IMG/VR virus record: IMGVR_UViG_3300045999_011735
Span: 1 to 64,000 of that record
Direction: 5' to 3' (one strand)
Source: a virus
Length of the DNA stretch: 64,000 nt
Positions 8,809-40,738 of the stretch are shown here, piece after piece. A program made the translations under genes and the position numbers. Under the pieces are notes generated by a model that had not been told where the DNA came from, did not search any database, and was given only the letters and a program-made list of their open reading frames with translations. Positions within the stretch are counted from its first letter, which is position 1, and the number at the start of each line of letters is the position of its first letter.

Positions 8809-10173
8809 TTATTTAATGTTTGCAAGTTTCTGCATACGAGCAATCCATTGGTTGCTCTCAACAATTTGTTGAGATTTTTCTGCAACACCAGCTGCTTTAG
8901 ATGCAAATCCTAAAGATTCTTTGATTTGGGCTTTTTCAGCTTTAACTGCAAATGTTTCGTTTAATGATTCATAAACGAGTTTTGCTTCTTTAGCTGATTC
9001 AGCTTTATCAAAAGCTTGTACAACCTTAATTTTCTGAGACTCTGTTAAGTTTTTAGCTTTGAAGAGCTTATTAACGTAAAGTAATTTAGCGTTTAATAAG
9101 TTTACTTCTTGAAGTTCTTGACGAAGAGTTTGAATAGTAGAAATTGCTTCTTCAAGTTCAGCTTCAGCAATACCAGTAGTTTTACTTGCAACTACAGCAC
9201 CACCTTTGCTTACAATACACTTTTGGAAAGCAGACATACGCTTGTCTGAAAGGAATCCCTGTTTTGGAACTTCTTTCGTAGCTTGTTCTCTACATGCTTT
9301 AACATCATCAGCAGTTAACTTCTTAGATGAAGTGCTGTATGAGCTAGCAACGGCAGAATCGTACTTGTCAGAAAGCCAGTTTGAAGCATCTTTAAAGAAA
9401 TCTTTAAGACCTTCGTCTAAATTTTTCTTTTTGTAATCTTCAACACCTTCTTCTTCAGCAGTGTCTTTTTTGTCGCCACGCTTGTCAGCAGGTACATCGC
9501 CTTTGTTTCCACCATACTTTTTTCTCTCTTCAAGAGAATCTTCTTCACCTAATAACTCAGCTAGAATTTCTTCTAAATTAACTTCATCATCAGTTGTGTC
9601 AGGCAATTCAGCGTCTACATCAACGTCAGCATCAACGTCAACATCTTCGCCATCAGGCCCCATTTCTTGAGAAACTATGTCGCGGATTAGTTCCTCTAAT
9701 TCATCCATAGAAAGTTCAGATACTTCTTTATCTTCCTCTTTTTCTTCTTCTTCATCAGATTCTTCGTCTTCAACGTCTTCTTCAGCTTCGATTTCTTCTT
9801 CTTCTTTAGCTTCTTTAAGATCGTCTTTTTTCTCAGACAATTCTTCATCTAATTCGGCAAGAATTTCATCAAGGTTGATTTCTTCGAGACTATTATCGTC
9901 ATCGTCGAATTTTTCCATATCTGTCATTTCTTCCATTTTTTCTTTGGCCTCTTTAGCTTTAGCTTCTTCAACTGCATCTGCATCATCCATCATCTCTTCC
10001 ATTGGCTTTTTTTCTTCGTCTTCATCCATAGCTTCTGCTAATTTAGCAGCAAACATAGATTGTAAACGTGGAGTAAAAGCCTCTTCGAGAGCAAGTTTGG
10101 CTTGAGCAAGAGCAGTTTCGCGTACAGCTTTAGCGTCAGCAATGGCCTCCTTTAAAAGGTCTTTTGTGTTCAT
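8809..10173 (-). CDS. Prohead core/scaffold protein (gp22-like)
   Basis: 454 aa acidic coiled coil immediately upstream of the MCP, with many (L/I)-x-E sites. Confidence 0.8.
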   Translation of the reverse strand: MNTKDLLKEAIADAKAVRETALAQAKLALEEAFTPRLQSMFAAKLAEAMDEDEEKKPMEEMMDDADAVEEAKAKEAKEKMEEMTDMEKFDDDDNSLEEINLDEILAELDEELSEKKDDLKEAKEEEEIEAEEDVEDEESDEEEEKEEDKEVSELSMDELEELIRDIVSQEMGPDGEDVDVDADVDVDAELPDTTDDEVNLEEILAELLGEEDSLEERKKYGGNKGDVPADKRGDKKDTAEEEGVEDYKKKNLDEGLKDFFKDASNWLSDKYDSAVASSYSTSSKKLTADDVKACREQATKEVPKQGFLSDKRMSAFQKCIVSKGGAVVASKTTGIAEAELEEAISTIQTLRQELQEVNLLNAKLLYVNKLFKAKNLTESQKIKVVQAFDKAESAKEAKLVYESLNETFAVKAEKAQIKESLGFASKAAGVAEKSQQIVESNQWIARMQKLANIK

Positions 10174-10859: not shown

Positions 10860-11501
10860 TTAATAGCCAGGTAATTCACAAGTACAGAAACCAGCGCGAT
10901 TGCAAAGAATTTCTGTTACAAGTTCGTTAACTTTGTCTAATTTATATTGTTGTTCTTTAGTATATTGATTGTATTGTTTAGATTCGCTAACAATTTCCAT
11001 AAAAGCACCTTGTGTTGATGGAGTTGACACGAAATCCCAACAAAGTAATTCAAAATCTGGTTGTACTTCAACAGTTTCACCAATTTGTTTTACAGAGCCC
11101 ATACCACGTGATGAAATACCTACAGTAATACCAGCAACTAATAATGCTTTTAAAATATTTCCTGAAGGTGTAGGTAAAATTTCAATTTTTCCCATTACAT
11201 CATCACCATCCCACCATAAAGATTTGATATTATGGCATACATTTTTTAAGTTAATAATTGGAGATTCTGGATGGTCCAACTCTCCCAATGCTCTATTTTC
11301 TTTAATGTATGTGTCTTTGTATTTTTGTACTTCTCTTTCAAGAGTATCTTTAGGGTATACACGACCATTGCCGTTTTTTGCTTCAGCACGTTGTACTAAA
11401 CCTTGAACAATAAGACGTCCACCGTTATTTTTAACGGATTCCTCCAATAAAGTTGGAGTAATATTAAAATTAGTAATACGTTCTATTAATAGCTCTTTCA
11501 T
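10860..11501 (-). CDS. gp21: Prohead core protein protease, T4 gp21-like
   Basis: NGNGRVYP, ALGELDHP, GISSRGMGS and DFVSTPS motifs. Confidence 0.93.
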   Translation of the reverse strand: MKELLIERITNFNITPTLLEESVKNNGGRLIVQGLVQRAEAKNGNGRVYPKDTLEREVQKYKDTYIKENRALGELDHPESPIINLKNVCHNIKSLWWDGDDVMGKIEILPTPSGNILKALLVAGITVGISSRGMGSVKQIGETVEVQPDFELLCWDFVSTPSTQGAFMEIVSESKQYNQYTKEQQYKLDKVNELVTEILCNRAGFCTCELPGY

Positions 11502-13141: not shown

Positions 13142-13513
13142 TTAAATATTATACCAAATAGCAACCATTTTTTTACCTGCTAAATTAAAAAATTCAGGAT
13201 CATTTTCTTCCTCATAAAAGCTAGGATCTTTGTCTACATCTTCAGCAAATCTAAAAGATACACCTATTTCTTTGTCTGGTGTTGCATCAAAATTTCCATC
13301 CTCTGTAAATCCTTGAACACTATTAACTAAATTTTTTCTTTTTTCAGCTTCCTCTGGTTTTAATCCATCAAATACTAAGTGATTAATCATGTATTTTTTA
13401 ACTTCATCTATATTGCTATTCAAAAAATTAATTACCGGTTGACCAGTTTCTTCTTTTAAAATACCAGCTAATTGCTGCATTCTTTTAGCTTCTTTAATTA
13501 ATTGTTTTTTCAT
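13142..13513 (-). CDS. Putative internal head protein with RMQxLA leader
   Basis: N-terminus MKKQLIKEAKRMQQLAGILKE. Confidence 0.6.
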   Translation of the reverse strand: MKKQLIKEAKRMQQLAGILKEETGQPVINFLNSNIDEVKKYMINHLVFDGLKPEEAEKRKNLVNSVQGFTEDGNFDATPDKEIGVSFRFAEDVDKDPSFYEEENDPEFFNLAGKKMVAIWYNI

Positions 13514-23640: not shown

Positions 23641-24447
23641 TTATTTTATATTTTGTTCAACCCATTTTCTAATTTCAATAGCTTGGGCTTTGTTATCTGT
23701 TGCTAATATATTAATATCATCTTCTATAAATTCTTCAACAGAACTAAAGTCTTTTGCTTTATTTAACATATCTCCATAATCTCCACCTAAATCACCACCA
23801 CCTAAATCTAAAAGATATTCGTAATATTTTTTCAATTTATCTTTATCAATATCTTCATTTAAACCACCACTAATTTCTTTGATTTTTTCTTGACAAAATT
23901 TAATGATGTCTTGTAAGTAATCAATTTGACCTTCTGTATTTTCAAAACCACCATTCATTAAATCTTGTTTAATGTCGTTGTAGATTGCTGGTTGGTTTTC
24001 ACTTAACTCTTTTTTTGACTCTTCGATATCTAAATCGCCTAACATAGCATCAACATCAGGTCTTGGTCTAGATGTTTTTGGTTCTTGTTGTTTTGAAGTA
24101 TATCCTTCTTTAGATATTAATTCTTTAACTTCTAAACTATTAAAAATAGGATTTACTGCTGGTTGAGGTACATTTCTTTCTTTAGCATAATCAATTTTTT
24201 GTACTCTTTTGCCGTCTTTTTTAGCTTTAAATAAGAATACTAAAGCAGCAAGTTCGCTATTTTTAATGCCTTCAGGTGCTTTACCAGAGGCTTTAGCTTG
24301 CTTTAAAATTTCTTCACCTTTTTCAGTGATTGTATAAGCACCACCAGTACCAGCTGTACGAGCCATTTCTGGAAGAGCCATTTCACTAATAGGCATATTA
24401 GCTAGTTTTTGCATTCTTTGTGCCTCTGAAATAAATTGTTTACTCAT
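23641..24447 (-). CDS. Modular putative internal head protein with RMQKLA leader and wHTH-like module
   Basis: MSKQFISEAQRMQKLANMPISE; modules follow LPE|MAR, LSE| and LNE|. Confidence 0.6.
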   Translation of the reverse strand: MSKQFISEAQRMQKLANMPISEMALPEMARTAGTGGAYTITEKGEEILKQAKASGKAPEGIKNSELAALVFLFKAKKDGKRVQKIDYAKERNVPQPAVNPIFNSLEVKELISKEGYTSKQQEPKTSRPRPDVDAMLGDLDIEESKKELSENQPAIYNDIKQDLMNGGFENTEGQIDYLQDIIKFCQEKIKEISGGLNEDIDKDKLKKYYEYLLDLGGGDLGGDYGDMLNKAKDFSSVEEFIEDDINILATDNKAQAIEIRKWVEQNIK

Positions 24448-25632: not shown

Positions 25633-25887
25633 TTAATCTAATTCAAAATCGTCGTTACGATCTAGAATAAAGAAATCACTAACACCGTCTTGATTTATAA
25701 GTGTTATTTTAACGTCGTTACCATATGCTTCAACGTCGTCAACTTTCACTTTATCACCTTGGCTTAATTTACCTAATTGAGCCATTAACGTGTATTCAGC
25801 ACCTACTTTAACACTACCTGCTTTAATTTCATTTACCATACCAGCAAGTTTTTGCATTCTTTGTGCTTCGTTGATATATTGTTTCAT
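25633..25887 (-). CDS. Putative internal head protein with RMQKLA leader
   Basis: MKQYINEAQRMQKLAGMVNE. Confidence 0.6.
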   Translation of the reverse strand: MKQYINEAQRMQKLAGMVNEIKAGSVKVGAEYTLMAQLGKLSQGDKVKVDDVEAYGNDVKITLINQDGVSDFFILDRNDDFELD

Positions 25888-29990: not shown

Positions 29991-30560
29991 TTAAGAGTTT
30001 ATTTTATTTTTTAATTGTTGTATACGATCCATAATTTGCTTTTTAACTTCTGCTTTATCTAACCCATTTCCCACCCAATTTTGGATAGTACCATCTTCCA
30101 TTACATAAGTTCCATTAATTAAATCATCTAAAAATTGATCAATGCCATCAGTAATATTATCAGCAAAATATTGTGCATTTTTATGAATCATATTGCGTTC
30201 GTATTCTTCATATTTGCCTTCTAATTTTAATAGGCTTTCCATTTCTGTAACACAATGTAAACACATTTGATGGATTCCATACATTTGTTTGTCAAATCTA
30301 TGTTTCATTGGTTTTGAACATTTTGGGCAAAGTACAGGAGTTCCTACAGCATCGGTTTTACGTAATGTACGTTTAATACCGTTTTTAATAGTCCATGTTT
30401 TACCATTTTCTTCCCAAACATCACCTTCAACGTGATGTTCTTCTGCTTTAGTATAACCAACAGAAGTAACGGTTTTATCATGTACTTTTTTTTGCGCTAG
30501 ATTTCTCATGCGCTGTAGATCTCGTTCAGTAAATTGTTTCTTTAGTGTAGTTTCTTTCAT
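29991..30560 (-). CDS. Hypothetical Zn-finger protein
   Basis: GDVWEENGKTWTIKNG; CPKC...CLHC. Confidence 0.6.
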   Translation of the reverse strand: MKETTLKKQFTERDLQRMRNLAQKKVHDKTVTSVGYTKAEEHHVEGDVWEENGKTWTIKNGIKRTLRKTDAVGTPVLCPKCSKPMKHRFDKQMYGIHQMCLHCVTEMESLLKLEGKYEEYERNMIHKNAQYFADNITDGIDQFLDDLINGTYVMEDGTIQNWVGNGLDKAEVKKQIMDRIQQLKNKINS

Positions 30561-30564
30561 AACT

Positions 30565-31773
30565 TTATTTTGTACTTAAATATCCACTTTCAATATCTTC
30601 AAACTCGTCTTCGTAATTTTTAATTAACATGATGTCTACTTTTATAGGATTGGCAGCGTTAATTACTTCATCTTCTAATTGATCACTCAATTTATCCATA
30701 AACTTTGGATTAAAGAACAATTCAGCATCGCCTGCTTTGGCTCTCATTACTACAGGTACACCTTCACCTTTTCGTTCAGCAGTACTAATAGCAAATGAAG
30801 CTGCAGGATAATAACGAGTGCTCCATGAAGATAATTTACGACGAGAAGAATATTCTTGATTTGGAATTATAATAGTATCTTTAGTTTCCTCTTTATTAGG
30901 ATTTTTATATAGTTTTGCTGCTTCTTCTTCACTTATAAAGGTTCCTCTATAAATGTAAGTATCAGGTGACAATCCAGTATCTCCTATTTCTGGGTAGTCT
31001 TTTTTTAATATTCTAAATGTTTCTAAATATGGATCTAAATTTATACTGCTGTATATATTAGATTCAGAGTCAGCATATTTTTTTAAAAAATCAAATAGTT
31101 TTTCTTCAGTAGGAGTGTCTACTTCTACTTCATCTTTATACCATCCTATTTTAACACCTGAATCTTTATCTCCAAATAAAAAATCTCCATATTCACCTTC
31201 TTTAATTAAATGCTCAAATAAATTAGGTTTTGCTTGAGCAAAGTTACGCATAATAACAGCTGCTCTAGAATTTGCTTCATTTTCATCATCACTACCTGTT
31301 TCACCAGATGTAGGAGTTAAACGACCGTCTAAATCTTGTTTATAGTGAACTAATTCATGAGCCAAAGTTCTAAATACATCAGCAGGATGTCTTTTAGCTA
31401 TTACTATATGAATTGACTTATCACTTGGTCTATACCCACCCCAAGAGCGTAAATCAATAGCTTCTTGAGAATCATCAGATAATGTAATTTTAGGTAATTT
31501 ATCTAAGTGAAGTTCATCCATTACGTGTTTCATGAACTCACTAACTAGATCTTTATTTAAATTTTCTTCTAAATTTAACTTAGCAAGTTTTGTATAATAT
31601 TTTGGATCTTCTGTAAGATGGTCTTTGGCAATGCGTCCAGCAACTTTTGGATCTTTTGTATGTTCCATTTCAACTTTAACGCCTTTTTTCCATTCTTTTT
31701 TAAGAATGTCAATGTCAACACCATGTTTATTTGCAATGTCTTGCAATGTCATTCCTTTTGATAATCCTGCCAT
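30565..31773 (-). CDS. Three-module protein: DUF5661-like + HExxH zinc peptidase + ADP-ribosyltransferase-like
   Basis: GVKVEMEH...AKDHLTEDPKYYTKL; LAHELVH...ENEAN; IYRG...SSWST...EDEVI. Start re-assigned to ATG 31773, downstream of the promoter and terminator. Confidence 0.65.
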   Translation of the reverse strand: MAGLSKGMTLQDIANKHGVDIDILKKEWKKGVKVEMEHTKDPKVAGRIAKDHLTEDPKYYTKLAKLNLEENLNKDLVSEFMKHVMDELHLDKLPKITLSDDSQEAIDLRSWGGYRPSDKSIHIVIAKRHPADVFRTLAHELVHYKQDLDGRLTPTSGETGSDDENEANSRAAVIMRNFAQAKPNLFEHLIKEGEYGDFLFGDKDSGVKIGWYKDEVEVDTPTEEKLFDFLKKYADSESNIYSSINLDPYLETFRILKKDYPEIGDTGLSPDTYIYRGTFISEEEAAKLYKNPNKEETKDTIIIPNQEYSSRRKLSSWSTRYYPAASFAISTAERKGEGVPVVMRAKAGDAELFFNPKFMDKLSDQLEDEVINAANPIKVDIMLIKNYEDEFEDIESGYLSTK

Positions 31774-31855: not shown

Positions 31856-32392
31856 TTAGAATCGATATAAAATTCCAAATTTAGGTGCGTTCAATTGATT
31901 ATTAACACCTGTAAATCCAATTGAAAATGTAGATGTAGAACCAACATCTGTGTAGTCAATCAAACTAGCCAATGATGTACTAAGGGCTAAGTTTTTAGAT
32001 ACAAAGTAGTTAGCGCCAAGACCTACGTTTGCGTTTTTAACTGACGTTTCGTTATTGCCAGCTTTAGTAGTAGTGCTTGACAAACTTAATTGAGAGTAAA
32101 CGTGAAATTTACTTCCAACACTTAATACGTAACATCTTCCAAAAGCACCAACACCATTTACTTTGGTGGTTGGGTTTTTACTAAATTCACCAGAAACACC
32201 TACGGCAAATTTATCAGTTAAAAAATATCCAGCGGCTGGATTGAGAAGGTACTGTCCATCAGTACCAGTTGCTTTTAAGTAAGACACTGTTCCTTCAGCA
32301 AATTTTTCTGCTTTTTTAAACTGTGCTTTTGTTGTAAACGACACTAGCATTAATGATAATGCGGTCACAACGAATTTTACTTGTTTTTTCAT
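31856..32392 (-). CDS. Outer-membrane beta-barrel protein (Bacteroidota OMP type)
   Basis: Signal peptide MKKQVKFVVTALSLMLVSFTTKA|Q, alternating beta strands, GYFLTDKFAVG, and a C-terminal GILYRF (BAM signal Phe). Confidence 0.8.
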   Translation of the reverse strand: MKKQVKFVVTALSLMLVSFTTKAQFKKAEKFAEGTVSYLKATGTDGQYLLNPAAGYFLTDKFAVGVSGEFSKNPTTKVNGVGAFGRCYVLSVGSKFHVYSQLSLSSTTTKAGNNETSVKNANVGLGANYFVSKNLALSTSLASLIDYTDVGSTSTFSIGFTGVNNQLNAPKFGILYRF

Positions 32393-32519
32393 AATTGTTT
32401 TTTTGGTTAAAAAATAAAAAAGCAGAGACATAATGTCCCCGCTAGCGCGTTATGCATACTTGTATTATAATATGTCTGTAGCAGTATTTTTGAAATTTTT
32501 AGTTTCATGTATAAATATG

Positions 32520-35899: not shown

Positions 35900-38800
35900 T
35901 TAACATGGACCTATATCTAAATACACATAATAATCATAAGTACCTGATACAATAGTAATACTACAATAAGCAGATGCTGTAAATAAGTCACATTGTGAAT
36001 TACTACAACCACCAGTACCACTAACACCTGCTGCTACTTGTGCTCCACTGGCATTAGCAGCTAATTCTATAGTATCACCAACAGATACACCAAATGTTCC
36101 ACTATTAGTTACTGATTGAAATACTTCAATATTAGAATTTTTATAAATGGCCATATCTCCAGAAGTAGAATCTGTATTTGTAGTTTGCCAAATAACTTGA
36201 TAAACTGGTGTAGGAGTAATAGTTGGTGTTGGTGTTGGAGTAGCGGTTATACTAGGAGTAGGTGTTATTGATGGAGTAGCGGTTATTGATGGTGTAGGTG
36301 TTATACTTGGTGTTTGAGTTCTAGTTGGTGTAGGTGTAATAGTTGGTGTAGGTGTTACACTAGGACAAGCTCCTAATGATGTAACTATACCTCCAGTTCC
36401 AATATAACATTGACCACCAACTGAGAAATGTTTTAAAACTGTTGTTACTGTACAAGTAGCATTACTATATAATTGTTTACCTGCTGCTAGTACACCACAA
36501 GTATATACAGTTTGAGGAGAACTAGTTTGTGCACAAGCTTCAGCACAATCATTTCCCTCATAAACTACAGTTGCTGTACAATTACAAGGTGTAACAGTAG
36601 GAGTTGGTGTTAATGTTCTAGTAGGTGTAATACTAGAAGTTGGTGTAATTGTTCTAGTAGGAGTGATACTTGGAGTAGCAGTAATACTAGGTGTAGCTGT
36701 TCTAGTAGGGGTAATTGTAACAGTTGGTGTAATAGAAGCTGTTGGTGTAATACTAGGTGTTCTACTAAATGTTGGTGTTGGAGTAATAGATGGTGTTGAT
36801 GTTATTGATGGTGTTATAGTTCTAGTAGGAGTTACAGTAGGAGTAGCAGTAACAGACGGTGTAGGTGTTATACTAGGTGTAGCAGTTATACTAGGTGTAA
36901 TTGTTCGTGTTGGAGTAATACTAGGTGTAGCTGTTATAGATGGTGTAGCAGTTATACTAGGTGTAGCTGTAATTGATGGAGTTATTGTTCTAGTTGGTGT
37001 TATACTAGGAGTAGCTGTAATACTAGGTGTTGGAGTGATAGAAGGTGTTACAGTTACACTTGGTGTTACAGTTTGAGAAGGTGTAATTGTACTAGTAGGT
37101 GTAATTGATGGTGTTACTGTTACACTTGGAGTAACAGTTACAGATGGAGTTACAGTACTAGAAGGTGTAATTGTTCTAGTTGGTGTAATTGATGGAGTTA
37201 CAGTTACACTAGGTGTTATAGTAACAGTAGGAGTTACAGTTTGTGAAGGTGTAATTGTTGTAGTTGGAGTTATACTAGGTGTTATAGTAACAGATGGCGT
37301 TACTGTACTTGTAGGAGTAATACTAGGAGTAGCAGTTACTGTTACAGTTGGTGTTATACTAGGAGTAATTGTAACTGATGGTGTAATTGTACTTGTAGGA
37401 GTAATGCTCGGTGTTACAGTTATTGTAACTGATGGTGTAATAGAAGGTGTTATAGTAATACTAGGTGTAATAGTAGAAGTCGGAGTAATTGATGGAGTTA
37501 CTGTAACAGTAGGAGTAATTGATGATGTTGGGGTTATAGTAACTGTAGGGGTAATACTTGGAGTAACAGTCACACTAGGTGTAACTGTACTAGTTGGTGT
37601 TATACTTGGGGTTACAGTTACAGTTGGAGTAACCGTCACACTTGGAGTTACAGTTACAGATGGAGTAATAGTACTAGTTGGTGTAACACTTGGTGTTATA
37701 GTAACAGTTGGAGTTATACTAGATGTAGGTGTAATAGTTGGTGTTGGTGTTTCACTAGGTGTTACAGTTACACTTGGAGTAATAGTTTGAGAGGGAGTTA
37801 CAGTAATAGTTGGGGTTATAGAAGGTGTTACTGTTACTGTTGGTGTTACAGATGCTGTAGGTGTAACTGTTAAAGTAGGAGTTATACTTGGAGTCTCAGT
37901 TATACTAGGAGTTATTGTAACAGTAGGGGTTACAGTTACACTAGGAGTAACAGTAATGGTTGGAGTTGTAGATACAACAGGTGTTGCTGTTACACTAGGA
38001 GTGGGTGTTATAGTTGGAGTAATAGATGGAGTAACTGTTGATGTTGGTGTTTCACTAGGTGTTACAGTTACAGTTACAGTAGGAGTTACTGTTTCACTAG
38101 GAGTAACAGTCACTGTAGGTGTAATAGTAACACTAGGTGTTATTGAAGGGGTTTCTGTTATAGAAGGTGTAATAGTAACAGATGGGGTAACAGTCACACT
38201 TGGAGTAATAGTAGAAGTTGGAGTAATACTTGGAGTAACAGTTACACTAGGAGTTACAGTTTCCGAAGGAGTAATTGTTACACTAGGTGTTACAGTAAAA
38301 GTTGGTGTAACTGAAGGTGTTATAGTTACAGTAGGTGTAATAGTTTGAGTTGGAGTAACCGTCACACTTGGAGTAACAGTTACAGTTACAGACGGTGTTA
38401 CTGTTTCACTTGGAGTTACAGTAACAGTTGGTGTTACAGTTTCACTCGGAGTAACAGTCACACTTGGAGTTACTGTAGCTGTAGGAGTTACAGTAGGTGT
38501 AATTGTTTCAGAAGGAGTAATTGTAACAGTAGGAGTTATTGTTTGTGAAGGTGTAATTGTTGTTGTTGGTGTAATTGAAGGTGTGATTGTAACTGTAGGA
38601 GTTACAGTTTCACTTGGTGTAATTGTAACAGTAGGAGTAATATTAGGTGTTTCTGTTATAGAAGGTGTAATTGTTACAGTTGGTGTTACAGTAGGAGTAA
38701 TTGTCTCACTTGGAGTAATAGTAACTGTTGGTGTTACTGTTTGAGATGGAGTAATAGTAGTAGTAGGAGTAACACTAGGTGTTACAGTTTCACTAGGTGT

Positions 38801-40738
38801 TACAGTTACAGTAGCTGTAGGTGTTATAGAAGGTGTTACTGTTACAGACGGAGTAACAGTAGGAGTTACAGTCTCACTAGGTGTTATAGTAACTGAAGGA
38901 GTAATTGTTTGAGTTGGAGTGACAGTTGTACTTGGAGTTACAGTTACAGTAACACTTGGTGTTATAGTTGATGTAGGTGTTACAGTAGAAGTAGGAGTAA
39001 TAGTTGGTGTTTCAGTAATAGTAGGTGTAATAGTAACTGTTGGTGTTACTGTTTCACTCGGAGTTATCGTAACTGAAGGGGTAATTGTAGAAGTTGGCGT
39101 TACAGTTGGTGTAACTGTTTCACTTGGAGTAATCGTAACACTAGGAGTTATTGTTGGGGTTGTACTTGGAGTAGTAGTAACTGTAGGAGTTACAGTTACA
39201 GAAGCCTCTATAGTTGCTGATGGTGTAAAAGAAGGTGTTCTACTTACTGTATGGCTTGGTGTTACAGTGACAGTAGGAGTAACAGTTGGTGTTTCAGTTG
39301 GTGTAAGTGAAGGTGTTGATGTTATTGATGGAGTAACAGTTGCTGTAGGGGTTTCACTTGGTGTAACAGATACAGTAGGAGTAATAGTTTCACTTGGAGT
39401 GATTGTAACAGTAGGGGTTAATGTTGATGTTGGTGTTACTGTAGGAGTAATACTTTCACTCGGAGTTATTGTTACTGATGGAGTGATAGTTGTAGTAGGA
39501 GTAACAGATGGTGTTTCTGATGGTGTAACAGTAGGTGTTGGAGTTTCAGTTGCAGTAGGTGTAATCGTTGCAGTAGGTGTAATTGAAGGTGTTTCAGTTA
39601 TACTAGGAGTGATTGTAACTGTTGGTGTTACAGTTTCACTTGGAGTTATTGTAGGAGTAACAGTTATACTTGGGGTAATAGTAGATGTCGGTGTTATAGA
39701 TGGTGTTACAGTAACAGTAGGTGTTATAGTACTTGTAGGAGTAATACTAGGTGTTTCTGTAATGCTAGGTGTAATTGTTACAGTAGGTGTAATTGTTTCA
39801 CTCGGAGTGATAGTTGGTGTTGGTGTTAATGTTTGAGTTGGAGTTATAGTAGGGGTTACTGTTGCACTTGGTGTTACAGTTACTGTTGGAGTTATAGTTT
39901 GAGTTGGTGTTACAGTAGCAGTAGGTGTAATAGTAGGTGTTATAGTTTCACTCGGTGTGATTGTTACTGTTGGCGTTATAGTAACTGATGGTGTAACAGT
40001 TGCTGTTGGAGTTATTGTTGTTGCTACAGTACTTGTAGGAGTAACTGTAGGAGTAATAGTTTCACTTGGAGTTATAGTAACTGATGGTGTAATAGTTTGA
40101 GTTGGAGTAATACTTGGAGTAACAGTTACACTTGGAGTTACTGTTTGAGATGGTGTAACAGTTACACTTGGAGTTACAGTTTCACTAGGTGTAATTGTAA
40201 CTGTAGGAGTTATAGTTTCACTAGGAGTAATAGTTCTAGTTGGTGTAATAGTTGGTGTTGTACTAGGAGTTACAGTTACTGTTGGAGTTATAGTAGAGGT
40301 AACAGTAGCTGTAGGTGTTATAGACGGTGTTATTGTTTTAGTAGGAGTTATAGTAACCGATGGAGTAACAGTTGCGGTAGGAGTAATAGTTGAAGCTACA
40401 GTTGCTGTAGGAGTAACTGAAAGGGTTTTTGTTATGGTAGGAGTTATAGAAGGAGTTCTAGTGATACTTGGAGTAATACTAGGTGTTGCAGTTACTGTTA
40501 CAGTAGGTGTAGGTGTAAAAGTTGGAGGAGGAGTAAATAATATAAGTGTATTACTTTGAAAAAAAGGATCAACCGCTTGTATATAAGCAGCATATGTTGC
40601 TGAAGGAACAGGAGCATAAGAAGCAGATCCACTTGAGTTATTAGCATATATAATGACATCCTGCAAACCAGTTTCATAATACTGGTCTACATAAAGCACT
40701 GAAGCTGTAACATCAAATGAAGCTGAAGTGTATCCCAT
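35900..40738 (-). CDS. Giant mucin-like Thr/Pro-repeat protein
   Basis: 1612 aa; ~1300 aa of hexapeptide T-x-T-P-(S/T)-x repeats and two Cys-rich C-terminal domains. Confidence 0.8.
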   Translation of the reverse strand: MGYTSASFDVTASVLYVDQYYETGLQDVIIYANNSSGSASYAPVPSATYAAYIQAVDPFFQSNTLILFTPPPTFTPTPTVTVTATPSITPSITRTPSITPTITKTLSVTPTATVASTITPTATVTPSVTITPTKTITPSITPTATVTSTITPTVTVTPSTTPTITPTRTITPSETITPTVTITPSETVTPSVTVTPSQTVTPSVTVTPSITPTQTITPSVTITPSETITPTVTPTSTVATTITPTATVTPSVTITPTVTITPSETITPTITPTATVTPTQTITPTVTVTPSATVTPTITPTQTLTPTPTITPSETITPTVTITPSITETPSITPTSTITPTVTVTPSITPTSTITPSITVTPTITPSETVTPTVTITPSITETPSITPTATITPTATETPTPTVTPSETPSVTPTTTITPSVTITPSESITPTVTPTSTLTPTVTITPSETITPTVSVTPSETPTATVTPSITSTPSLTPTETPTVTPTVTVTPSHTVSRTPSFTPSATIEASVTVTPTVTTTPSTTPTITPSVTITPSETVTPTVTPTSTITPSVTITPSETVTPTVTITPTITETPTITPTSTVTPTSTITPSVTVTVTPSTTVTPTQTITPSVTITPSETVTPTVTPSVTVTPSITPTATVTVTPSETVTPSVTPTTTITPSQTVTPTVTITPSETITPTVTPTVTITPSITETPNITPTVTITPSETVTPTVTITPSITPTTTITPSQTITPTVTITPSETITPTVTPTATVTPSVTVTPSETVTPTVTVTPSETVTPSVTVTVTPSVTVTPTQTITPTVTITPSVTPTFTVTPSVTITPSETVTPSVTVTPSITPTSTITPSVTVTPSVTITPSITETPSITPSVTITPTVTVTPSETVTPTVTVTVTPSETPTSTVTPSITPTITPTPSVTATPVVSTTPTITVTPSVTVTPTVTITPSITETPSITPTLTVTPTASVTPTVTVTPSITPTITVTPSQTITPSVTVTPSETPTPTITPTSSITPTVTITPSVTPTSTITPSVTVTPSVTVTPTVTVTPSITPTSTVTPSVTVTPSITPTVTITPTSSITPTVTVTPSITPTSTITPSITITPSITPSVTITVTPSITPTSTITPSVTITPSITPTVTVTATPSITPTSTVTPSVTITPSITPTTTITPSQTVTPTVTITPSVTVTPSITPTRTITPSSTVTPSVTVTPSVTVTPSITPTSTITPSQTVTPSVTVTPSITPTPSITATPSITPTRTITPSITATPSITATPSITATPSITPTRTITPSITATPSITPTPSVTATPTVTPTRTITPSITSTPSITPTPTFSRTPSITPTASITPTVTITPTRTATPSITATPSITPTRTITPTSSITPTRTLTPTPTVTPCNCTATVVYEGNDCAEACAQTSSPQTVYTCGVLAAGKQLYSNATCTVTTVLKHFSVGGQCYIGTGGIVTSLGACPSVTPTPTITPTPTRTQTPSITPTPSITATPSITPTPSITATPTPTPTITPTPVYQVIWQTTNTDSTSGDMAIYKNSNIEVFQSVTNSGTFGVSVGDTIELAANASGAQVAAGVSGTGGCSNSQCDLFTASAYCSITIVSGTYDYYVYLDIGPC
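36587..40535 (-). repeat. Degenerate 18-nt coding tandem repeat (Thr-Pro hexapeptide)
   Basis: Recurrent GGTGT/GGAGT...ACAGT/ATAGT units with heavily varied synonymous codons. Confidence 0.9.

Follow-up and report, generated by a model that had tools for sequence, protein, structure and literature searches.

A three-module gene in a viral contig

The gene analyzed here lies on the minus strand at positions 30565-31773 of a 64,000-nucleotide stretch of viral DNA (IMG/VR record IMGVR_UViG_3300045999_011735, positions 1 to 64,000), the whole of which is referred to as the window. By sequence analysis and structure modeling, the encoded 402-residue protein combines a DUF5661 domain, a zincin-type metallopeptidase, and an ADP-ribosyltransferase (ART) domain with an R-S-E active site, and the two linkers between these modules are short, disordered, and terminate in [LI]-x-E. 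An earlier note had drawn module borders at 31563, 31198, and 31197, which correspond to residues 71, 192, and 193, and the three modules so delimited proved to be real. The features of the gene are as follows, where pLDDT is the per-residue confidence of the structure model.

30565-31773, minus strand: whole gene, small polyvalent protein, 402 residues plus stop, no internal stops
31576-31740, minus strand: module 1, DUF5661 (residues 12-66), small helical domain, from Pfam PF18905
31564-31587, minus strand: junction 1 (residues 63-70, LAKLNLEE), candidate L-x-E cut site L68-E69-E70, pLDDT <50
31198-31563, minus strand: module 2, zincin-like metallopeptidase (residues 71-192; folded core ~74-181), from phrog_87, fold, and motifs
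31345-31359, minus strand: HELVH (H139-E140-x-x-H143), metal-binding and catalytic motif, invariant in 35 sequences
31270-31284, minus strand: ENEAN (residues 164-168), candidate third zinc ligand Glu in the next helix, from conservation and model
31198-31221, minus strand: junction 2 (residues 185-192, LFEHLIKE), candidate sites L185-F-E187 and I190-K-E192, pLDDT <50 at 187-192
30568-31197, minus strand: module 3, ADP-ribosyltransferase domain (residues 193-402) with an N-terminal helical subdomain, from model and fold matches
30943-30951, minus strand: Y275-R276-G277, predicted Arg of the R-S-E triad, strand 81-88 of the module
30817-30831, minus strand: S315-S316-W317-S318-T319, S-x-S/T motif, strand 123-126 followed by helix 129-143 of the module
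30667-30675, minus strand: E367-D368-E369, ExE motif, start of strand 177-180 of the module

The ATG at 31773 is the likely start, because 402-residue homologues open with the same MAGLSKG; a longer, TTG-initiated reading frame of 437 residues runs into the upstream gene. From the ATG, the N-terminus reads MAGLSKGMTLQD..., which is already DUF5661. The motifs named in the earlier note were located by script at residues 139-143 (HELVH), 164-168 (ENEAN), 275-277 (YRG), 315-319 (SSWST), and 367-370 (EDEV), with NLEE ending at residue 70 and LIKE at residue 192. Homologues of the whole protein number 516 at E ≤ 0.001, and, judged from these sequences, the three-module pattern is far beyond chance and marks a conserved family. 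Searches of PDB sequences returned nothing meaningful for the whole protein or for the peptidase and ART profiles. An ESM Atlas look-up gave nameless clusters and one DUF4765 cluster at 0.93, recognition being low, and was not used.

The protein ends in an acidic tail, YEDEFEDIESGYLSTK (residues 387-402; 30568-30615, minus strand), that is kept to the last residues in four homologues (P0020, P0027, P0032, and P0058) with 52-57% overall identity and is predicted to be a helix with falling confidence. T4 Alt has a C-terminal propeptide, and by analogy this tail might be a targeting element.

Module 3 has the predicted fold and active site of an R-S-E ADP-ribosyltransferase

A HMMER search with the ART module against 1.84 billion representative sequences returned 82 relatives with E ≤ 0.001, of which 31 reached ≤ 1e-10 and 24 reached ≤ 1e-30; stand-alone proteins of 200-250 residues are common among them. 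Forty-three of the 82, chosen for a length of at most ~330 residues and a single matched stretch, were aligned with the module; identity to the query in this 44-sequence alignment ranges from 21 to 64%. Four columns are invariant (module numbering first): E31 (E223), R84 (R276), S124 (S316), and E177 (E369). A further four positions, E175 (E367), Y275, G277, and W317, are at least 90% conserved. The structure model built on this alignment (pLDDT 92.0, predicted TM score 0.86) places R276, S316, and E367-x-E369 on strands 81-88, 123-126, and 177-180 of the module. An Arg on one strand, an S-x-S/T strand followed by a helix, and an ExE at the start of a strand form the canonical R-S-E layout. 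The R-S-E pattern read from the sequence in the earlier note is thus borne out by an invariant triad and by the ART fold of the model.

The structure search that the earlier note had proposed as a check on this fold also found it. Compared by VIA-align with 48,161 chains, the module matched 100 chains at Z ≥ 2, 7 at Z ≥ 5, and none at Z ≥ 8. All seven of the chains at Z ≥ 5 are ARTs by title: Vis, Certhrax (twice), C3bot2, a Listeria ART toxin, the ART toxin 6drh, and HopU1. Nearly all of the first 37 entries in the list are chains that we take to belong to the ART superfamily. The best match is Vis (4xzj, Z 6.9-7.0, 137-138 aligned residues, root-mean-square deviation (rmsd) 3.6-3.7), and a second VIA comparison adds Plx2a at Z 5.8 and also lists Tre1. 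Vis is likewise the best match in Foldseek (4xzk, E 7e-3), with KptA and pertussis S1 among the other top matches, and the matches in a viral structure library include MuF-linked and Alt/ModB-type phage ARTs.

By sequence, the module was assigned to no family in the profile libraries searched. Pfam placed no ART family on the 402-residue protein at E ≤ 1; on the 44 family members it gave scattered single matches, with no ART family among the 25/34 families listed; no PHROG family matched the module, and neither did any PDB sequence. ART-PolyVal (PF18760), whose active site is defined as H-Y-D (PMC5512222), gave no Pfam match to module 3, the active site of which is R-S-E. A tblastn match in cyanophage S-SRM01 that reaches residue 244 was considered as an ART and rejected, because the alignment continues beyond a stop codon and contains none of the ART motifs. 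Antidote genes of the Macro or ADP-ribosylglycohydrolase type were absent from the 115-kb record, which is an estimated 67% complete. From the sequence conservation and the model, module 3 is an ADP-ribosyltransferase fold of the R-S-E type with intact Y-R-G, S-x-S-T, and E-x-E motifs, and its activity is predicted.

Module 2 is a zincin-type metallopeptidase by fold and motif

In an alignment of 35 sequences, H139, E140, H143, E164, A167, and N168 are invariant, and N165 and E166 are at least 90% conserved. An AlphaFold model of the N-terminal half of the protein (mean pLDDT 79.6) shows helix 74-88, strands 95-99, 112-115, and 120-124, the HExxH helix 130-148, and the Glu helix 162-181. This order of one helix, three strands, an HExxH helix, and a Glu helix is the topology given for the zincin-like metallopeptidase (MPTase) of polyvalent proteins (PMC5512222), and module 2 therefore has the HExxH helix, the Glu helix, and the topology by which that domain is recognized.

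With VIA-align against the same chains, two matched module 2 at Z ≥ 8 and 52 at Z ≥ 5. The best is 1oz9 (AQ_1354, YbeY-like; Z 9.1, 102 aligned residues, rmsd 2.9), followed by SPRTN (6mdx, Z 8.3), Wss1 (7.7), selecase (7.2), anthrax lethal factor (6.9), and ArdC (6sna, 6.8), with many aminopeptidase catalytic domains also among the matches. Foldseek returned the same families with weak values (E ≥ 0.05). Among profiles, the PHROG family phrog_87, "metallo-protease", matches the module (E 8e-4); Pfam has no peptidase family on it, and NCBIfam gave sub-threshold matches alone on the HExxH region (e.g., XopG, which scored 17 bits where the cut-off is 150). This peptidase is found on its own in cyanophages B23 and S-SRM01, and in Flavobacterium phage immuto it forms part of a 907-residue protein.

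The earlier description of this module as gluzincin- or ImmA-like stands as far as the HExxH...E signature and the zincin fold are concerned; ImmA is too specific a name. The M78 family (ImmA/IrrE) gave no Pfam match at E ≤ 1 and IrrE is weak in Foldseek (E 0.16), although one source labels three homologues "ImmA (M78 family)", and the structural neighbors are generic small zincins (YbeY-like proteins, SPRTN/Wss1, minigluzincins, and ArdC). On motifs and model, module 2 is a zincin-type metallopeptidase with an intact HExxH...E site, for which proteolysis and zinc binding are predicted.

Module 1 is a probable adaptor of virion-linked proteins

The DUF5661-like character of module 1 was upheld by Pfam, which places PF18905 at residues 12-66 (E 2.3e-14, 53.9 bits against a cut-off of 27; 57.8 bits at the same place in a rescan). 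In the model, the domain consists of helices 10-17, 21-35, and 42-55. As to its fold, VIA-align found two sigma-factor-like helical chains at Z 5.2-5.3, values too low to call the domain a helix-turn-helix. A literature search found no paper on DUF5661.

A search with residues 1-70 against 66 candidate proteins of 705-2010 residues gave 32 matches, 10 of which were rescanned for domain order. In precomputed Pfam lists, the partners of DUF5661 are cytidylyltransferase-like domains (9 proteins), ART-PolyVal (4), NUDIX (4), GNAT (2), and the Mu-type portal (2), and further partners are 2H phosphoesterase, InPase, and Kinase-PolyVal domains. A Mu-type portal domain (78-452) is followed by DUF5661 (512-551) in P0226, and the order in P0225 is portal, DUF5661, 2H domain. 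In Vibrio phage VPs20, DUF5661 matches within a DUF2213 protein whose gene lies in the head-gene region, between the terminase gene and a DUF2184 gene. On these sequence contexts, DUF5661 behaves as a small, promiscuous helical module of ~60 residues found in virion-linked polyvalent proteins and Mu-type portals. Its presence in one long polyvalent protein after another, and next to Mu-type portals in fusions, makes a virion-associated adaptor more likely than an enzyme. Of the three effectors proposed in the earlier note, three modules are therefore present, and the third effector is doubtful.

Cytidylyltransferase/NMNAT-like domains recur next to, or fused with, the peptidase or DUF5661. They are encoded by neighboring genes in S-SRM01 (L006) and in Caulobacter phage Cr30 (L010; TagD) and are fused in immuto (L008) and in P0027, P0036, P0069, and P0200-P0213. 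This recurrence suggests a tie between NAD+ or nucleotide metabolism and these cargo modules.

[LI]xE motifs are concentrated at the module borders

In the model of the N-terminal half, pLDDT falls below 50 at residues 1-4, 63-70, and 187-192 alone, so that the two junctions are the only internal segments modeled as disordered. The protein contains five [LI]xE sites, which end at E55, E70, E187, E192, and E282, and three of the five (L68-E-E70, L185-F-E187, and I190-K-E192) are accessible in these low-pLDDT linkers. T4 gp21 cuts after the Glu of L/I-X-E (PMC9026906). The earlier suggestion that LEE and IKE are junction sites agrees with these results: both lie in disordered linkers, both fit the T4 motif, and an S77 protease is encoded in the window.

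The same arrangement is found across the ART family. Among the collected proteins, 113 ART module starts gave 91 distinct upstream 14-mers, and in 79 of these related contexts an [LI]xE ends 2-12 residues upstream of the module, compared with 11.3% of 16,801 random positions in the same proteins. The motif falls at -2 to -5 in 47 of the 91 (background 4.4%). By class, it precedes the ART in 53 of 55 internal and 26 of 36 N-terminal contexts, and 12 of the 91 contexts are without it. In stand-alone ARTs, leaders such as MIKLLDILKE stand directly before the domain (e.g., MIKLLDILKEG-IYGDYLFG, compared with HLIKEG-EYGDFLFG in the fusion) and are like the leaders of neighboring genes in the window.

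The peptidase module is preceded by L-x-E in most contexts, whether it follows DUF5661 (LEE), a ParB domain (ILKE), or other domains (LNE, LSE, VNE, LDE). After DUF5661, a regular-expression search of the collected proteins found an xLE(E) tail in all 66 occurrences (45 distinct tails) but one, which reads LKE. Within the folded ART and peptidase cores [LI]xE is depleted relative to shuffled sequences, and in the other two sets listed it exceeds the shuffled count:

108 ART cores: 163 [LI]xE observed, 254.0 ± 14.0 in shuffled sequences
112 peptidase cores: 34 observed, 138.3 ± 10.8 shuffled
8 replication and metabolic enzymes of the window: 36 observed, 26.9 shuffled
Open reading frame (ORF) in the scaffold position (below): 22 observed, 9.6 ± 2.7 shuffled

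Several long metagenomic relatives (P0134, P0129, P0126, P0125, and P0124) contain the same peptidase and ART modules amid many small domains and have the look of cargo polyproteins. Linkers of the type L[DN]EIK[VI] separate their domains, 12 times in P0134 (1612 residues), 7 times in P0129, where IRV and ITV/ITI forms also occur, and 3-4 times in P0124-P0126. A further leader, which contains WW ("...F.K.WW....L.L.E"), is reused both N-terminally and internally in these five proteins. The window has an ORF of the same length as P0134, and identity of the two was ruled out, as their sequences differ.

The phage encodes a gp21-type protease and keeps the gene in a variable slot

PHROG and Pfam scans, which took in 68 and 22 ORFs of the window, respectively, identified a T4-type head module with a gp23-like capsid protein, a gp20-type portal, a large terminase, and a Peptidase_S77 (gp21-type) prohead protease, as well as baseplate wedge proteins, a primase, an exonuclease, and PhoH. 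Two of these head-region genes bear on the junctions:

10860-11501, minus strand: T4 gp21-type prohead serine protease, candidate enzyme for the L/I-x-E junctions (Peptidase_S77 PF03420, E 1.2e-30; phrog_207 "head maturation protease", E 9e-62)
8809-10173, minus strand: acidic ORF in the scaffold position between the protease and capsid genes, rich in [LI]xE (22 sites)

Among cultured phages, parts of the protein are matched most closely in Flavobacterium phages (immuto), T4-like cyanophages, and Caulobacter phage Cr30. By gene content, the phage is a T4-like myovirus, and its relatives point to Bacteroidota hosts.

The slot occupied by the gene is kept in all four of the related viral contigs, with a PD-(D/E)XK exonuclease gene on one side and a conserved Zn-ribbon gene for a protein of 189-194 residues on the other; a run of genes with MIKL leaders adjoins the slot in all four. 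The build of the slot protein differs from contig to contig. It is peptidase and ART in L001; the WW leader, a domain without assignment, peptidase, and ART in L002 (502 residues) and L004 (585 residues); and DUF5661, a ParB-type domain, and peptidase with no ART in L003 (304 residues). Of the related records, the two with a completeness of 90% or more (174 kb and 155 kb) each encode an S77 protease; the two with no S77 match are fragments, 33% and 18% complete.

A proposed route from prohead to host, and its alternatives

We propose that the 402-residue protein is a small polyvalent effector, processed by the S77 protease of its T4-like myovirus and delivered to the host, a reading that we regard as evenly poised between right and wrong. 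The protein would be made late and taken into the prohead, perhaps by way of DUF5661 or the leader-like linkers. The prohead protease would then cut after E70 and after E187 and/or E192, and the resulting three pieces would exit the head together with the DNA. In the host, the ART would transfer a single ADP-ribose from NAD+ to a host protein. R-S-E enzymes of the ExE type are as a rule specific for arginine, which is therefore the likely acceptor here. The peptidase might act on a host protein or aid processing. Packaging, cleavage, injection, ART activity, the acceptor, and the target, whether for host takeover or anti-defense, are what we infer beyond the domain architecture itself.

A number of observations weigh against this reading. 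The 402-residue protein has no N-terminal leader resembling a capsid targeting sequence (CTS), and its gene stands among replication genes (primase, exonuclease), about 12 kb from the head genes. Two of the [LI]xE sites, at E55 and E282, are within folded domains. The conserved tail after DUF5661 is LxLE and relatives with a ParB domain have LE-IKV or LENIKV, with no L at P3, so that junction 1 may be a structural tail and not a cut site. Core depletion in the target protein taken alone is not significant (2 sites against 4.9 expected, with 204 of 2000 shuffles as low), and, because the sequences behind the motif counts are related, the contexts are less independent than the enrichment and depletion figures suggest. 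A tblastn search of 50,697 cultured-phage records found matches to the DUF5661 and peptidase parts only and none to the ART module. Finally, the fold score of the module (Z 7.0) is moderate by the tool's own caution, and the ART assignment is made despite this score because the hit lists are homogeneous and the triad is invariant.

The peptidase lies between the other two modules with its active site intact and is itself a possible source of the cuts. This embedded zincin, rather than the prohead protease, could free DUF5661 and the ART, in the head or after injection, or the protein could be delivered and act uncut. Iyer, Burroughs, Anand, de Souza, and Aravind (2017) describe MPTase domains as the hub of polyvalent proteins and as probably autoprocessing them, and N4 virion RNA polymerase and ArdC are given there as delivered uncut (PMC5512222); the ArdC peptidase is among the structural neighbors of module 2 (Z 6.8). 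We nevertheless consider self-processing unlikely. Stand-alone ARTs that have no peptidase still bear an N-terminal leader ending in [LI][LI]xE, which points to a trans-acting enzyme. In addition, the motif at the junctions is the one that the S77 family is reported to cut (PMC9026906), a member of which is encoded by the same phage, and L[DN]EIK[VI] recurs up to 12 times between many domains of the long relatives that are not peptidases.

The missing leader and the position of the gene beside the primase, exonuclease, and other replication genes, not the head genes, would also suit a protein that is never packaged. It could be a cytoplasmic modifier of host or phage proteins like T4 ModA/ModB, with the [LI]xE linkers as flexible, charged connectors of shuffled cassettes. 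T4 indeed has non-packaged ARTs (PMC5512222, PMC9503650), and a motif this short is expected in proteins rich in K, E, L, and I, the whole target having 5 [LI]xE sites against 5.7 expected. However, throughout the family the motif clusters where modules meet and is depleted inside their cores, the slot-orthologous proteins of two relatives (L002 and L004) open with a leader, DUF5661 is fused to portal proteins, and the locus adjoins a run of leader-bearing genes; this alternative, too, is judged improbable. That module 3 is not a protein-arginine ART but a NAD+ glycohydrolase, a nucleic-acid ART (Scabin, pierisin, or DarT type), or a phosphotransferase-like enzyme is very unlikely: the fold does leave the acceptor unfixed, no sequence family is assigned, and KptA/Tpt1, Arr, Scabin, pierisin, and DarT are among the structural neighbors (Z 2.7-5.4), but the alignments that score highest and extend furthest (130-151 residues, with the N-terminal helical subdomain covered) are those with the protein-targeting Vis, Certhrax, C3, HopU1, Tre1, and Plx2a. 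The invariant residues R, S, and ExE, moreover, characterize the protein-targeting R-S-E group, and KptA, Arr, and DarT are not known to have this signature.

Delivery of an S77-processed effector may extend beyond this one gene. Polyvalent effectors of T4-like Bacteroidota phages could be cassette polyproteins, in which each module (ART, zincin, ParB, DUF5661, and many more) has its own short L/I-x-E leader or cut site, occurs strung together or singly, is loaded into the prohead, and is released by the S77 protease rather than by self-cleavage. We advance this generalization tentatively, its prospects being somewhat short of even. By sequence, its extreme case would be the relatives with up to 12 L[DN]EIK[VI] linkers in a single 1612-residue protein.

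Comparison with known systems

The class of polyvalent proteins and head-packaged ARTs are already in print (PMC5512222; PMC9503650). As characterized in the 2017 survey, polyvalent proteins resemble the present one in joining unrelated enzymatic modules in one phage polypeptide with a zincin-like MPTase hub, in their ART and ParB partners, in extensive domain shuffling among relatives, and in predicted delivery with the DNA. The protein described here differs in that it is very small (402 residues, three modules), in that its ART is of the R-S-E type, and in that its module borders fit a trans-acting S77 protease, whereas processing by the embedded peptidase is proposed in that survey (PMC5512222). 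It also differs from the published polyvalent and head-packaged ART systems in opening directly with DUF5661, with no N-terminal leader.

T4 Alt, to which the earlier note had compared the protein, is cut at ITE-6 and LTE-619 (PMC5694885) and injected (PMC5694885, PMC9026906). The likeness consists in an R-S-E ART, a phage with a gp21-type protease, and candidate sites that likewise flank the N-terminal side of the ART. The comparison did not extend to kinship: hhalign of the 44-sequence ART profile against T4 Alt gave a probability of 0.2%, that is, no relationship recognizable by sequence. Moreover, the module here is fused to a peptidase and DUF5661, its genomic context differs, and its packaging is conjectural. 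A literature search found no paper titled on prohead-protease processing of an ART polyprotein or ejection cargo in T4-like phages.

The first 10 residues of T4 IPIII are the CTS that loads internal proteins (PMC9026906). As with T4 IPI-IPIII, short N-terminal leaders ending in hydrophobic-x-E are present here on small, unrelated proteins whose genes cluster in a variable locus, and many genes of the window open with leaders of this form. Stand-alone members of the present ART family have them as well. In the target, by contrast, the leader-like sequences are internal, between modules.

With the C3-like and Vis/Certhrax mono-ARTs, module 3 shares the ART core, the N-terminal helical subdomain, and the positions of Arg, S-x-S/T, and ExE on equivalent elements (Z 5.5 to Certhrax and C3bot2). 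It differs in having 14-19% sequence identity to them and in being part of a phage protein that would act on bacteria, with no secretion or translocation parts. Module 2 shares a compact zincin core (residues 70-180) with the small zincins, namely SPRTN/Wss1, the minigluzincins selecase and abylysin, the ArdC MPTase, and the YbeY-like fold. None of these was matched at the sequence level, and YbeY is a nuclease with a different metal motif.

Other genes of the window

Directly downstream of the polyvalent gene, a 189-residue CxxC...CxxC protein is encoded (29991-30560, minus strand) that has no family match and is present in all four related loci at 43-84% identity; it may be a functional partner of the polyvalent protein. 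Between the exonuclease and polyvalent genes lies a 191-residue ORF (31856-32431, minus strand) whose N-terminus, MKKQVKFVVTALSLMLVSFTTKAQ, resembles a signal peptide and which has a weak beta-barrel-type match in Pfam. It has no counterpart at that position in the four related loci and may be a phage-borne outer-membrane protein moron.

The 1612-residue ORF of the window (35900-40738, minus strand) lies in a region with raised GC and an extreme GC skew (+0.42 to +0.53, plus strand, 36-40 kb). It is probably a repeat-rich fiber or surface protein, with phrog_15511 at its C-terminus. Three other ORFs on the minus strand (13142-13513, 23641-24447, and 25633-25887) have in common a longer, two-part leader, MK.Q.I.EA.RMQ.LAG...E, and the stand-alone ART relative P0136 has a leader similar to it, ...LQKLAGIILE.

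Implications for injected phage cargo

When phages disarm or reprogram a cell in the first seconds of infection, a main route is thought to be by head-packaged ARTs and polyvalent effectors, and the evidence for that route is almost all computational or from T4 Alt. Because its linkers look like cut sites of the phage head-maturation protease, the present protein is probably cargo in several parts that is passed into the host, a strategy already known that here takes a new form. What it adds is an ART family missed by current profile libraries, an exception to the claim made in 2017 that polyvalent proteins lack R-S-E ARTs (PMC5512222), and a processing rule that can be put to the test, by which each border between modules carries L/I-x-E in a phage that encodes a gp21-type protease. 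If this rule holds, injected cargo would be predictable from sequence in uncultured T4-like Bacteroidota phages, and the rapid shuffling of cargo at one locus would be explained. Cassette polyproteins, if they are what these effectors are, would then constitute a plug-and-play system for evolving injected cargo, including a previously unrecognized R-S-E ART family.

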